This document shows, in pieces, positions 60,475 through 63,630 of a stretch of 64,000 bases of DNA. The translations under genes were made by a program, and so were the position numbers. The stretch is from Escherichia coli (GTDB taxonomy: Bacteria > Pseudomonadota > Gammaproteobacteria > Enterobacterales > Enterobacteriaceae): assembly GCF_003334815.1 (NCBI RefSeq), contig NZ_QOWO01000007.1. One strand, 5' to 3'. Each line of letters opens with the position of its first letter. Within the stretch, counting starts at the first letter, position 1. The notes under the pieces were generated by a model that worked only from the letters and a program-made list of their open reading frames with translations, had not been told where the DNA came from and ran no database searches.

Positions 60475-63114
60475 ATGCTGGGTAAATATAAAGCCGTTCT
60501 CGCGCTGTTATTACTGATTATTCTTGTGCCGTTGACGCTGCTGATGACGCTCGGGCTGTGGGTTCCCACGCTGGCGGGCATCTGGCTACCGCTCGGGACA
60601 CGTATTGCATTAGATGAAAGCCCACGCATTACGCGTAAAGGTTTAATCATTCCCGATCTCCGTTATCTGGTGGGAGATTGTCAGCTTGCGCATATCACCA
60701 ACGCCAGCCTTTCACATCCCAGCCGCTGGTTATTGAACGTCGGCACGGTAGAACTTGATTCTGCTTGTCTGGCGAAATTGCCGCAGACGGAGCAATCGCC
60801 AGCCGCTCCAAAAACACTCGCGCAGTGGCAGGCCATGCTGCCTAACACCTGGATCAATATCGATAAACTGATTTTTTCTCCCTGGCAGGAATGGCAGGGA
60901 AAACTCTCTCTCGCATTAACCTCTGATATCCAGCAACTGCGTTATCAGGGCGAAAAAGTTAAATTTCATGGCCAGCTGAAAGGGCAACAACTTACAGTCA
61001 GCGAACTGGATGTCGTCGCGTTTGAAAATCAGCCGCCGGTAAAACTGGTGGGGGAATTTGCTATGCCGCTCGTGCCGGATGGACTTCCTGTAAGTGGGCA
61101 TGCTACTGCGACGTTAAACTTGCCGCAGGAACCGTCACTGGTGGATGCCGAGCTGGACTGGCAGGAAAATAGCGGGCAATTGATCGTGCTGGCACGGGAT
61201 AACGGCGATCCGTTGCTCGATTTGCCGTGGCAAATTACTCGTCAACAATTGACCGTAAGCGATGGTCGCTGGAGCTGGCCGTATGCAGGTTTTCCTTTGA
61301 GTGGCCGACTGGGTGTCAAAGTCGACAACTGGCAGGCAGGGCTTGAGAACGCTCTGGTCAGCGGACGACTGAGTGTGCTGACCCAGGGGCAAGCGGGTAA
61401 GGGCAACGCGGTGCTTAATTTTGGCCCAGGAAAATTAAGCATGGATAACAGTCAGCTGCCTCTGCAGCTGACCGGTGAAGCGAAACAGGCGGACCTCATT
61501 TTATATGCCCGTTTACCTGCGCAGCTAAGTGGAAGTCTGTCTGACCCAACGCTGACCTTTGAGCCAGGCGCGTTACTTCGTTCAAAGGGAAGAGTCATCG
61601 ATTCGCTGGACATCGATGAAATCCGCTGGCCTTTAGCGGGTGTAAAAGTCACCCAACGTGGTGTTGACGGACGTTTGCAGGCCATCTTGCAGGCGCATGA
61701 AAATGAACTGGGCGATTTCGTGCTGCATATGGATGGGCTGGCGAATGATTTTCTCCCTGACGCTGGCCGCTGGCAGTGGCGCTACTGGGGAAAAGGGAGT
61801 TTTACACCGATGAATGCCACCTGGGATGTCGCAGGAAAAGGTGAGTGGCATGACAGCACGATTACGCTGACCGATCTCTCCACCGGTTTCGACCAGTTAC
61901 AATACGGTACGATGACGGTAGAAAAGCCGCGATTAATTCTCGACAAGCCCATCGTCTGGGTACGTGACGCACAGCATCCCTCCTTTAGCGGCGCGCTGTC
62001 ACTGGACGCCGGGCAAACGCTGTTCACTGGCGGCAGTGTGTTACCGCCATCAACCTTAAAATTTAGCGTCGATGGGCGCGATCCTACCTATTTCCTCTTT
62101 AAAGGCGATTTACATGCTGGTGAGATTGGCCCGGTTCGGGTAAATGGTCGCTGGGACGGTATTCGTCTGCGCGGTAACGCCTGGTGGCCTAAACAATCAC
62201 TGACCGTATTCCAGCCGCTGGTGCCACCCGACTGGAAGATGAACTTACGCGATGGTGAACTGTATGCTCAGGTTGCATTTTCTGCTGCGCCTGAACAAGG
62301 ATTCCGCGCGGGAGGACACGGCGTGTTGAAAGGCGGTAGTGCCTGGATGCCAGATAATCAGGTTAACGGTGTCGATTTTGTCCTGCCTTTCCGTTTTGCC
62401 GATGGAGCCTGGCATCTGGGGACTCGCGGCCCCGTTACGTTGCGAATTGCCGAAGTGATTAATCTGGTGACAGCGAAAAATATTACGGCTGATTTGCAAG
62501 GGCGTTATCCGTGGACTGAAGAAGAACCCTTGCTGTTGACTGATGTTAGCGTCGATGTGTTAGGCGGTAACGTACTGATGAAACAATTACGTATGCCGCA
62601 ACATGACCCGGCGCTGTTGCGGCTGAATAATCTCTCATCCAGCGAACTGGTTAGCGCCGTCAATCCGAAACAATTCGCCATGTCCGGGGCATTTAGTGGT
62701 GCACTGCCGTTATGGCTGAACAATGAAAAATGGATTGTGAAAGATGGCTGGCTGGCGAATAGCGGGCCGATGACATTGCGACTGGATAAAGACACTGCGG
62801 ATGCGGTGGTAAAAGACAATATGACTGCGGGTTCAGCAATTAACTGGTTGCGCTATATGGAAATTAGCCGTTCATCGACAAAAATTAATTTAGATAATCT
62901 CGGTTTATTAACCATGCAGGCCAACATTACAGGTACCAGTCGCGTTGATGGTAAAAGCGGTACGGTAAACCTTAATTACCATCATGAAGAGAATATTTTT
63001 ACGCTGTGGCGCAGTTTACGCTTTGGCGATAATCTCCAGGCATGGCTGGAGCAGAACGCACGTCTGCCGGGAAATGACTGTCCGCAAGGAAAAGAGTGTG
63101 AGGAAAAACAATGA
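60475..63114 (+). CDS. ydbH: AsmA-like large envelope protein YdbH, 879 aa
   Basis: ORF 60475..63114; N-terminal TM anchor then long beta-rich periplasmic region. Confidence 0.92.
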   Translation: MLGKYKAVLALLLLIILVPLTLLMTLGLWVPTLAGIWLPLGTRIALDESPRITRKGLIIPDLRYLVGDCQLAHITNASLSHPSRWLLNVGTVELDSACLAKLPQTEQSPAAPKTLAQWQAMLPNTWINIDKLIFSPWQEWQGKLSLALTSDIQQLRYQGEKVKFHGQLKGQQLTVSELDVVAFENQPPVKLVGEFAMPLVPDGLPVSGHATATLNLPQEPSLVDAELDWQENSGQLIVLARDNGDPLLDLPWQITRQQLTVSDGRWSWPYAGFPLSGRLGVKVDNWQAGLENALVSGRLSVLTQGQAGKGNAVLNFGPGKLSMDNSQLPLQLTGEAKQADLILYARLPAQLSGSLSDPTLTFEPGALLRSKGRVIDSLDIDEIRWPLAGVKVTQRGVDGRLQAILQAHENELGDFVLHMDGLANDFLPDAGRWQWRYWGKGSFTPMNATWDVAGKGEWHDSTITLTDLSTGFDQLQYGTMTVEKPRLILDKPIVWVRDAQHPSFSGALSLDAGQTLFTGGSVLPPSTLKFSVDGRDPTYFLFKGDLHAGEIGPVRVNGRWDGIRLRGNAWWPKQSLTVFQPLVPPDWKMNLRDGELYAQVAFSAAPEQGFRAGGHGVLKGGSAWMPDNQVNGVDFVLPFRFADGAWHLGTRGPVTLRIAEVINLVTAKNITADLQGRYPWTEEEPLLLTDVSVDVLGGNVLMKQLRMPQHDPALLRLNNLSSSELVSAVNPKQFAMSGAFSGALPLWLNNEKWIVKDGWLANSGPMTLRLDKDTADAVVKDNMTAGSAINWLRYMEISRSSTKINLDNLGLLTMQANITGTSRVDGKSGTVNLNYHHEENIFTLWRSLRFGDNLQAWLEQNARLPGNDCPQGKECEEKQ

Positions 63115-63296
63115 AAATTTTACTGGCTGCGTTGACGTCATCTTTTATGCTGGTTGGCTGTACGCCTCGCATTGAAGTCGCTGCACCTAAGGAACCGATC
63201 ACTATCAATATGAACGTTAAAATTGAGCATGAGATCATCATCAAGGCAGACAAAGATGTCGAAGAGCTGCTTGAAACTCGTAGCGATCTTTTCTGA
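63111..63296 (+). CDS. ynbE: Small lipoprotein YnbE, 61 aa
   Basis: ORF 63111..63296; lipobox MLVGC; ATGA overlap with the ydbH stop. Confidence 0.9.
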   Translation: MKILLAALTSSFMLVGCTPRIEVAAPKEPITINMNVKIEHEIIIKADKDVEELLETRSDLF

Positions 63297-63303
63297 GGTG
63301 ATG

Positions 63304-63630
63304 ATGAAGAAAACATTACTTCTTTGTGCGTTTCTTGTTGGGCTGGTAAGCAGCAATGTAATGGCATTGACTCTGGATGAAGCCAGAACTCAGGAGCGGG
63401 TAGGTGAAACATTTTACGGTTATCTGGTTGCGCTGAAAACGGATGCTGAAACAGAGAAATTAGTAGCCGACATTAATGCCGAACGTAAAGCGAGTTACCA
63501 ACAACTGGCAAAGCAAAATAATGTGTCGGTAGATGATATCGCGAAACTCGCCGGGCAAAAGCTCGTAGCTCGGGCCAAACCGGGGGAATATGTACAAGGG
63601 ATAAACGGTAAATGGGTGCGAAAATTTTAA
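63304..63630 (+). CDS. ydbL: Periplasmic protein YdbL, about 108 aa
   Basis: ORF 63223..63630 trimmed to ATG 63304 (MKKTLLLCAFLVGL...), 5 nt after a GAGG; signal peptide. Confidence 0.85.
   Translation: MKKTLLLCAFLVGLVSSNVMALTLDEARTQERVGETFYGYLVALKTDAETEKLVADINAERKASYQQLAKQNNVSVDDIAKLAGQKLVARAKPGEYVQGINGKWVRKF

Follow-up and report, generated by a model that had tools for sequence, protein, structure and literature searches.

How phospholipids are delivered to the outer membrane of Gram-negative bacteria is an important question to which one small operon of the E. coli chromosome is one of three known answers, and the tight packing of its genes raises the further question of whether their products are made in fixed proportion. 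In the window, the whole 64,000-nucleotide stretch of E. coli DNA that was analysed and by which all positions are counted, the genes ydbH, ynbE and ydbL are neighbours in that order on the + strand in both the ORF list and the mapped RefSeq annotation of K-12 MG1655:

60475..63114, + strand: ydbH, 879 aa, inner-membrane-anchored AsmA-like/repeating beta-groove protein (ORF list, NF007971, PF11739)
63111..63296, + strand: ynbE, 61 aa, outer-membrane lipoprotein (ORF list, PF13617)
63304..63630, + strand: ydbL, 108 aa, periplasmic DUF1318 protein with a signal peptide at residues 1-21 (PF07027, PDB 28oj)

We consider it very probable that this stretch is the chromosomal E. coli ydbH-ynbE-ydbL operon, and that it encodes an inner-to-outer-membrane bridge together with its modulator YdbL by way of ATGA-coupled expression. 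Of 5426 complete E. coli genomes, 5418 match the stretch, which is the b1381-b1383 locus of E. coli K-12, given that MG1655 differs at 2 nucleotides over 3533 bp, that its RefSeq annotation maps onto identical gene boundaries and that YnbE is identical; the only two amino-acid changes are YdbH Q165H, at a variable site, and YdbL G31E, at a near-invariant glycine. Family matches and dN/dS values against E. albertii of 0.08 (ydbH C-terminus), 0.05 (ynbE) and 0.14 (ydbL) confirm that these are three genuine genes and not chance ORFs, and that all of them are under purifying selection.

A sequence-only reading of this DNA had given coordinates, an ATGA overlap and a 7-nt spacing before ydbL that prove correct to the base against the ORF list and the raw sequence, and its naming of an AsmA-like inner-membrane-anchored protein, an outer-membrane lipoprotein and a signal-peptide periplasmic protein is borne out by profile matches and the K-12 annotation. 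The role in intermembrane lipid transport that it assigned to the operon agrees with the literature (PMC11126948). It understated that literature, however, in calling the function only recently and partly described, because the three checks it proposed have all been published: an AlphaFold-Multimer model, synthetic lethality with tamB/yhdP and YnbE-YdbH crosslinks by Kumar, Davis & Ruiz 2024 (PMC11126948). In addition, the YdbL structure and the YdbL-YnbE interface were described by De'Ath et al. 2026 (bioRxiv 10.64898/2026.03.16.712125), and termination-reinitiation coupling at the ydbH/ynbE junction by Huber et al. 2019 (PMC6728339). The locus, the protein contacts, the role of YdbL and the ydbH/ynbE coupling are thus already known, and since they are in print our treatment of them adds nothing for the specialist. 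The comparative results presented here offer modest corroboration in the form of a conserved overlap, a stop codon placed within a Shine-Dalgarno (SD) sequence, and natural loss of ydbL with divergence of the YnbE tail.

YdbH belongs to its family over practically its entire length. It scores 1400 bits against NCBIfam NF007971 (cut-off 824), residues 1-878 aligning with profile positions 1-874 of 875, and its residues 14-862 match Pfam PF11739 of the AsmA-like clan (E = 2.3e-290). Read from the translation, residues about 7-30 (AVLALLLLIILVPLTLLMTLGLWV) are uniformly hydrophobic and would form the N-terminal anchor ahead of a long periplasmic domain. A search of the PDB found no solved YdbH structure, and the continuous hydrophobic beta-groove attributed to the protein is a prediction from the AlphaFold models cited in PMC11126948; its function is described there and in PMC8593681. 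One of the two differences from K-12 falls in this gene:

60969, + strand: SNP giving YdbH Q165H, T here and A in K-12, strain-specific, at a residue that varies among orthologues

An exact 61-mer around this position was matched in strain 52F4 only.

The lipoprotein YnbE matches Pfam PF13617 (E = 3.7e-16). Its lipobox L-V-G-C occupies residues 14-17, with Cys17 as the predicted lipidated residue, Thr at +2 and no inner-membrane retention signal, and the cysteine is followed by [TVI]PRIE in 81 of 81 orthologues. The mature sequence is nearly invariant across 81 species, in which the beta-strand ITINMNVKI (residues 30-38) changes in two loci only, by K37R (L015, L033), and it closes with a C-terminal helix ending in RSDLF. 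No NCBIfam model matched YnbE or YdbL, whereas Pfam matched both.

Taken together with the published work, these features suggest a bridge in which the N-terminal helix of YdbH would anchor in the inner membrane and its hydrophobic beta-groove would reach across the periplasm, where YnbE, lipid-anchored in the outer membrane, would add its strand I30-I38 to the last YdbH strand and possibly stack as a short oligomer to complete the connection, such that phospholipids could slide along it. [quoted passage not shown] That the YdbH-YnbE pair transports lipid is nevertheless a deduction, which its authors themselves describe as lacking biochemical demonstration (PMC11126948). The modelled YdbH with one YnbE measures ~180 A as compared to a periplasm of ~250 A (PMC11126948), and the bridge architecture is therefore incomplete. 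YnbE multimerises, and any figure for its copies per bridge would likewise be a deduction; the authors leave the number per YdbH open (PMC11126948; bioRxiv 10.64898/2026.03.16.712125). YdbH is redundant in outer-membrane lipid homeostasis with TamB, which works with TamA, and with YhdP, and, like both, is anchored in the inner membrane and spans the periplasm as a repeating beta-groove protein (PMC8593681, PMC11126948). Different from these, however, TamB docking on the beta-barrel TamA and YhdP being thought long enough alone, YdbH is shorter, relies on beta-strand augmentation by a small lipoprotein for its completion and possesses a dedicated periplasmic modulator.

How are the bridge proteins brought into expression together? 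The first junction comprises two elements:

63100..63104, + strand: Shine-Dalgarno GAGGA for ynbE, within the last ydbH codons, its AGGA core ending 6 nt before the ynbE ATG
63111..63114, + strand: ATGA, ynbE start (ATG 63111-63113) overlapping the ydbH stop (TGA 63112-63114), termination-reinitiation site

The SD duplex has an energy of -6.2 kcal/mol. E. coli operons abound in ATGA-type overlaps, and the overlap could be an incidental instance of this commonest arrangement, devoid of regulatory meaning, with each gene initiated independently. Such a reading might also draw on the junction RNA, which is not unusually structured, and on distant relatives, in which the operon genes are separated by short gaps without overlaps. 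It is hard to reconcile, however, with the conservation of the junction in our sample of 81 Enterobacteriaceae loci, where the overlap is kept in 80 (ATGA in 65, TAATG in 15, a +2 gap in the remaining one) even though YdbH identity is only 63-96% and dS is saturated, and where AGGA at a spacing of 6 nt precedes the ynbE ATG in 73 of 81 species, the core surviving even changes of the encoded residues from CEE to CKE. Moreover, a premature stop in ydbH abolished ynbE translation in a reporter, in which the internal SD was strictly essential (PMC6728339). We thus regard an incidental overlap as very unlikely, and the description of the operon as tightly coupled stands for the step from ydbH to ynbE. 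By this termination-reinitiation mechanism, only ribosomes arriving directly from the end of ydbH would translate ynbE. The pairs hyfHI, astDB and menDH studied by Huber et al. 2019 resemble ydbH/ynbE in their ATGA-type overlap, with an SD lying within the first gene and no expression of the second gene when translation of the first fails; ydbH/ynbE stands apart in that its SD is strictly essential, a dependence stronger than in any other of the five pairs tested (PMC6728339). The occluding RNA structure that these authors proposed as a block to de novo initiation at ynbE was not confirmed by folding, and since the -99..+30 fragment does not exceed shuffled sequence in stability (z = +0.73) we withhold any structural claim for the junction. 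Given the short gaps in the distant relatives, the overlap characterises the Enterobacteriaceae and is not shared by the family as a whole.

The second junction is built differently:

63294..63300, + strand: TGAGGTG, ynbE stop (TGA 63294-63296) inside the ydbL Shine-Dalgarno, duplex -6.9 kcal/mol

The ydbL ORF is TTG-extended and ends at 63630; its annotated ATG at 63304 lies 7 nt past the ynbE TGA. A second in-frame ATG is present in E. coli at 63301, 4 nt past that stop. The +7 ATG alone is kept in 64 of 75 species and is at a workable spacing from the GAGG core (63295-63298). Among the 75 species, 68 have TGAGG, the ynbE stop and the two nucleotides after it, and 64 of the 75 have the 7-nt gap. 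Translation of ydbL, starting just past a stop that sits within its SD, would appear to be coupled to that of ynbE. The counts for both junctions across the Enterobacteriaceae are new here and are comparisons of sequence.

YdbL matches Pfam PF07027 (E = 1.1e-29). Its signal peptide ends in VMA at residue 21, and the crystallised chain PDB 28oj corresponds to residues 22-108 (E = 1e-51). The protein would act as a periplasmic chaperone-like factor that docks on the C-terminal helix of YnbE and holds back its runaway, amyloid-like multimerisation, being helpful yet dispensable, and toxic in excess. Binding of a YnbE C-terminal peptide to YdbL has been observed by NMR and native mass spectrometry (bioRxiv 10.64898/2026.03.16.712125). 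Kumar, Davis & Ruiz draw the analogy with CsgC and the curli subunit CsgA, where a periplasmic protein keeps its beta-strand-stacking partner from premature, amyloid-like polymerisation (PMC11126948). YdbL has no kinship with CsgC in sequence or fold, however, as it is an alpha-helical DUF1318 protein and binds the C-terminal helix of its client instead of the stacking strand.

The wider distribution of the operon bears on this role. Of 80 Enterobacteriaceae species, 75 have the three genes in this order; an additional locus is cut at its end, with the ydbL start visible. Synteny holds in every locus whose upstream flank is available, ldhA lying upstream in 76 of 81 loci and being absent only from five with short or cut upstream sequence. 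Among distant relatives, three loci extend far enough upstream to cover all three genes and show the order PF11739, PF13617, PF07027, and a fourth contig, cut upstream of the lipoprotein gene, retains PF13617 followed by PF07027; YdbL identity in these distant loci is 36-44%. In 5 sampled species, namely Phytobacter massiliensis, Enterobacter sp. ENT03, kpr-6, BIGb0383 and UBA3516, ydbL is absent from a locus with intact ydbH-ynbE. We reject the idea that these loci are a paralogous second copy, all five having divergent ldhA upstream like the others. The RSDLF tail of YnbE is lost in all five, as opposed to 3 of the 76 other loci (Fisher p = 2e-6), which fits the published contact between YdbL and the YnbE C-terminus. 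The ydbL gene has been lost in several Enterobacteriaceae lineages, probably at least three times and each time with divergence of the YnbE tail, and this would imply YdbL-independent YnbE variants that control their own multimerisation. Neither this pattern nor the ynbABC neighbourhood described below has a counterpart in the cited operon literature.

But might YdbL not be an obligatory structural subunit of the bridge instead of an accessory chaperone-like factor? It is predicted to contact the YdbH C-terminus, variants at the predicted interface partly impair it (bioRxiv 10.64898/2026.03.16.712125), and YdbH levels drop in its absence (PMC11126948). However, removal of ydbL from a tamB yhdP double mutant gives a viable strain that cannot be told apart from the double mutant, ydbH and ynbE are necessary and sufficient for complementation (PMC11126948), and the five syntenic loci naturally lacking ydbL retain both. 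An obligatory YdbL is thus extremely improbable. Of the two small partners on which the sequence-only reading had made YdbH depend, YnbE is required for YdbH function, whereas YdbL is dispensable.

The same observations bear on the claim of stoichiometric co-translation, by which the overlap and the 7-nt gap would enforce a fixed 1:1:1 output of YdbH, YnbE and YdbL for an equimolar three-protein complex. The total dependence of ynbE translation on that of ydbH in the reporter (PMC6728339) and the conserved junction architecture are in line with it, AlphaFold-Multimer and MultiFold2 yield a plausible 1:1:1 model, and the authors stress relative levels (PMC11126948; bioRxiv 10.64898/2026.03.16.712125). 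The ratio of YdbL to YnbE does matter, since a tamB yhdP mutant is killed by an excess of YdbL. Coupling fixes dependence and not ratio, however, and a 1:1 ratio therefore does not follow from it. Reinitiation efficiency need not be 100%, YnbE forms multimers and the stoichiometry of the complex is left open by the authors (PMC11126948; bioRxiv 10.64898/2026.03.16.712125). Furthermore, YdbL at its native level escapes detection, and DegP degrades it in vitro when it is not bound to YnbE (bioRxiv 10.64898/2026.03.16.712125), and ydbL has a strong SD of its own, does not overlap ynbE and is missing altogether from five species. We therefore find the claim of stoichiometric co-translation unsupported and an enforced 1:1:1 output unlikely; the reading that we prefer is one of coupled expression with YdbL as a dispensable modulator.

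The allele of ydbL in the window is unusual:

63395, + strand: SNP giving YdbL G31E, A here and G elsewhere, private, at a near-invariant family glycine

All 75 orthologues have glycine at residue 31, as do 121 of 128 distant representatives, and an exact 61-mer around the SNP had no match in any complete E. coli genome. The family core is hence incomplete at this one residue, G34, E35, G39, Y40, N58, R61, Y65, G94, G102 and W104 being intact. Membership of DUF1318 is not in doubt, but the full function of this allele is. Like the ynbABC neighbourhood, we take it as a lead rather than a finding.

The operon is flanked by two noncoding elements:

60268..60474, no strand assigned: ldhA-ydbH divergent intergenic region, 207 bp
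63757..63809, no strand assigned: hairpin between convergent ydbL and feaR, 18-bp perfect inner stem 63764-63804, -33 kcal/mol, z = -9.4

The first presumably holds the operon promoter, although a consensus scan of 60200-63850 for sigma-70 promoters and terminators returned counts at chance level and no site in this spacer. Ahead of ydbH, only a weak AGGA is present, at the large distance of 12 nt from the ATG. The hairpin, missed by the terminator scan, covers the feaR stop codon (63802-63804) with its 3' arm, is followed by a U-tract on neither strand, and is probably the end of both transcripts. An Rfam scan of 59000-64000 gave a single, sub-threshold match, to the microRNA family mir-5880, which coincides with this hairpin; it is spurious and was rejected as an RNA gene.

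In 12 of 80 species ynbA-ynbB-ynbC, encoding a CDP-alcohol phosphatidyltransferase, a CdsA paralogue and a hydrolase/methyltransferase, lie directly downstream on the same strand, 70-185 nt away, and the E. coli fea-tyn-paa block may have been inserted between ydbL and ynbABC. It would be a decidedly long shot to propose from this arrangement that the YdbH bridge was in its ancestral state tied to a lipid made by YnbABCD, which it may transport in preference to bulk phospholipid. As to the strain, K-12 and 52F4 were considered as the source of the window and rejected, since the window is colinear with strain A27, in which ttcA adjoins uspF with no prophage between them; strain 52F4 carries a prophage between these two genes.

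The operon lies where the sequence-only reading had placed it and bears the names ydbH, ynbE and ydbL given there, as judged from the ORF list, the K-12 MG1655 annotation and family matches. The three frames, taken from the ORF list and the raw sequence, are:

ydbH: 60475-63114, plus strand, 879-codon ORF; full-length match to NCBIfam equivalog NF007971 (1400 bits, cut-off 824) and to Pfam PF11739 (E = 2e-290)
ynbE: 63111-63296, plus strand, 61-codon ORF; Pfam PF13617 (YnbE-like lipoprotein), lipobox LVGC with Thr at +2
ydbL: annotated ATG 63304, end 63630, plus strand, third ORF; Pfam PF07027 (DUF1318), residues 22-108 being the crystallised chain of PDB 28oj

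The three genes of the K-12 MG1655 RefSeq annotation map to identical window coordinates, and two base differences separate the operon stretch from that strain. At 90-100% identity, the 3.5-kb stretch is matched in 5418 of the 5426 complete E. coli genomes. Comparison with E. albertii shows purifying selection on each of the three genes (dN/dS of 0.08 for the ydbH C-terminus, 0.05 for ynbE and 0.14 for ydbL), and the two small ORFs are therefore real genes. PDB 28oj is titled 'probable chaperone-like protein YdbL', and the match to its chain places signal-peptide cleavage of YdbL after Ala21; a PDB search found no solved structure of YdbH or YnbE. The stretch also occurs on five records labelled plasmid and is absent from 8 of the 5426 genomes, cases that are possibly mislabelled replicons or deletions.

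The overlap of the ydbH stop with the ynbE start and the 7-nt spacing to ydbL, both noted previously, are seen in the raw sequence. The ydbH TGA (63112-63114) and the ynbE ATG (63111-63113) have three bases in common, giving ATGA, and the ynbE TGA (63294-63296) is followed after 7 nt by the annotated ydbL ATG at 63304. A second in-frame ATG for ydbL is located at 63301. We favour 63304 as the probable start, because the ribosome-binding site has its GAGG core at 63295-63298, a spacing of 5 nt for 63304 as against just 2 nt for 63301, and because the +7 ATG alone is generally conserved across related species.

This arrangement was followed through 80 retrieved loci of Enterobacteriaceae species with YdbH identities of 63-96%. 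They are orthologous, since a divergent ldhA is found upstream in 75 of them and is missing only in five with short or cut upstream sequence. With K-12 as the 81st locus, the ydbH/ynbE junction is ATGA in 65, TAATG with a one-base overlap in 15, and in the remaining one a gap of 2 nt. An AGGA core stands 6 nt before the ynbE ATG in 73 of the 81 loci and is kept where the YdbH tail changes from C-E-E to C-K-E, a persistence that speaks for selection acting on the ribosome-binding site as such. At the second junction ydbL starts after a 7-nt gap in 64 of 75 loci, and in 68 of the 75 the ynbE stop codon lies within the ydbL Shine-Dalgarno sequence (TGAGG). Also examined were four distant homologues of YdbL with 36-44% identity, taken from a set of 1074 family representatives. 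The order YdbH-like, YnbE-like, DUF1318 is kept in the three loci whose sequence extends sufficiently upstream, and the last two genes are kept on the fourth contig, which is cut upstream of the lipoprotein gene. These loci have short gaps (2-63 nt and 9-37 nt) and no overlaps; the three-gene module is thus old and the overlap a refinement of the Enterobacteriaceae. Separately, an alignment of 14 YdbH orthologues shows C869 and C875 (..C-x5-C-E-E.., window 63078-63114) to be nearly invariant at the extreme C-terminus, where a periplasmic disulfide is possible; the codons 3' of C875 also encode the ynbE ribosome-binding site.

The locus is an example of an already known system, 'textbook-in-the-making'. 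The ATGA overlap and its 'strong translational coupling' were named outright by Kumar, Davis and Ruiz (PNAS 2024, PMC11126948), and the ydbH/ynbE junction was among the five native E. coli junctions tested by Huber et al. (Nat Commun 2019, PMC6728339). In the latter work ynbE was no longer translated when ydbH carried a premature stop codon, removal of the internal Shine-Dalgarno sequence abolished reinitiation, and coupling needed no more than a -99..+30 fragment, with local RNA structure suggested as the block to de novo ynbE initiation. In our hands this fragment folds at -30 kcal/mol as compared to -32.4 +/- 3.2 for shuffled sequences (z = +0.73), and therefore thermodynamics alone does not single it out.

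Complex structure prediction, synthetic lethality with tamB/yhdP and YnbE-YdbH crosslinking, which the sequence-only reading had proposed as checks, have all been published. [quoted passage not shown] Loss of YdbL lowered YdbH and raised YnbE multimers, excess YdbL was lethal to a tamB yhdP mutant, and the essential function proceeds without YdbL, which is thus dispensable (PMC11126948). De'Ath et al. (bioRxiv 2026, 10.64898/2026.03.16.712125) solved YdbL at 2.12 A and mapped the YnbE C-terminal helix by NMR and native-MS onto a conserved YdbL pocket; overproduced YdbL reduced YnbE multimerisation, while YdbL is undetectable at native levels and, when free, is degraded in vitro by DegP. The one point of the earlier interpretation that finds no support is 'stoichiometric co-translation'; the remainder is correct. 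YnbE multimerises, the number of YnbE per bridge is not established in the literature, and a model with one YnbE (~180 A) is too short to span a periplasm of ~250 A (PMC11126948). Coupling means that ynbE translation depends on ydbH translation, not that the products stand in a fixed 1:1 ratio.

Five syntenic loci keep ydbH-ynbE and lack ydbL within 4 kb (region at about 6550-6900 in each locus): L036, L046, L051, L061 and L069, from Enterobacter sp. ENT03, Phytobacter massiliensis, UBA3516, Enterobacter sp. kpr-6 and Enterobacter sp. BIGb0383. The YnbE tail ..RSDLF, almost invariant elsewhere, is altered or replaced in all five (..RSDLL, ..QQEIKARE, ..RQNH, ..HTDGESR, ..RSDLHN) as opposed to 3 of 76 loci with ydbL (Fisher p = 2e-6), an association that agrees with the published binding of YdbL to the YnbE C-terminal helix. 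L046 has ynbABC downstream of ynbE; the other four have an azoR-like gene, which adjoins ynbE in L069 and is separated from it by one ORF in L036, L051 and L061. Identities to the nearest neighbours suggest that ydbL was lost more than once. Natural loss at these loci would show YdbL to be dispensable in nature too.

Between 39001 and 64000 the window differs from strain A27 at three sites (60969, 61424, 63395), all inside the operon, and two of these (60969, 63395) are window-specific and nonsynonymous. YdbH Q165H (60969, codon 165) affects a site that varies among species; the change is shared with the calf isolate 52F4 only. The other, GGG to GAG in ydbL codon 31 (63395), yields YdbL G31E, which occurs in none of the 4830 complete E. 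coli genomes matching the 61-mer. Glycine stands at this position in 75 of 75 orthologues from the Enterobacteriaceae and in 121 of 128 distant representatives of DUF1318; three residues away is R28, for which a contact with YnbE F61 is predicted. Three readings of G31E are possible: a sequencing error, a neutral oddity and a natural hypomorphic allele. The ttcA-uspF junction (about 51500-52700) is colinear with A27, ttcA and uspF being adjacent, and the window is therefore without a prophage there. In strain 52F4 a prophage of about 50 kb occupies the site and includes an annotated anti-CBASS Acb1-family gene; K-12 presumably has the Rac prophage here.

Downstream of the operon, between the convergent ydbL and feaR, lies a further element:

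hairpin: 63757-63809, 18-bp perfect inner stem at 63764-63804, -33 kcal/mol, z = -9.4

The feaR stop codon falls within its 3' arm. Since a U-tract is missing behind the stem on both strands, the hairpin is not a canonical intrinsic terminator. A sub-threshold Rfam microRNA match produced by this hairpin was dismissed as spurious.

In E. coli and most other loci the place next to the operon's downstream end is taken by convergent feaR. In 12 loci (L006, L010, L012-L015, L018-L021, L043, L046; about 6900-10600) homologues of ynbA, ynbB and ynbC (CDP-alcohol phosphatidyltransferase, CdsA paralogue, hydrolase/methyltransferase) are found there instead, 70-185 nt downstream on the same strand (80-185 nt after ydbL; 70 nt after ynbE in L046). 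On the K-12 map we take ynbABCD to lie beyond the fea-tyn-paa genes. The four distant loci have no ynbABC neighbours, so that the adjacency is probably plain synteny; none of the papers searched connects ynbB with ydbH in function. On the E. coli plasmids NZ_CP027341.1, NZ_CP166875.1 and NZ_CP045714.1 a cluster resembling ynbA/ynbB/ynbC includes, in addition, a gene for a lysophospholipid acyltransferase, and the cluster's nucleotide identity to the Phytobacter genes is 75%, as compared to 67% for E. coli chromosomal ynbABC.
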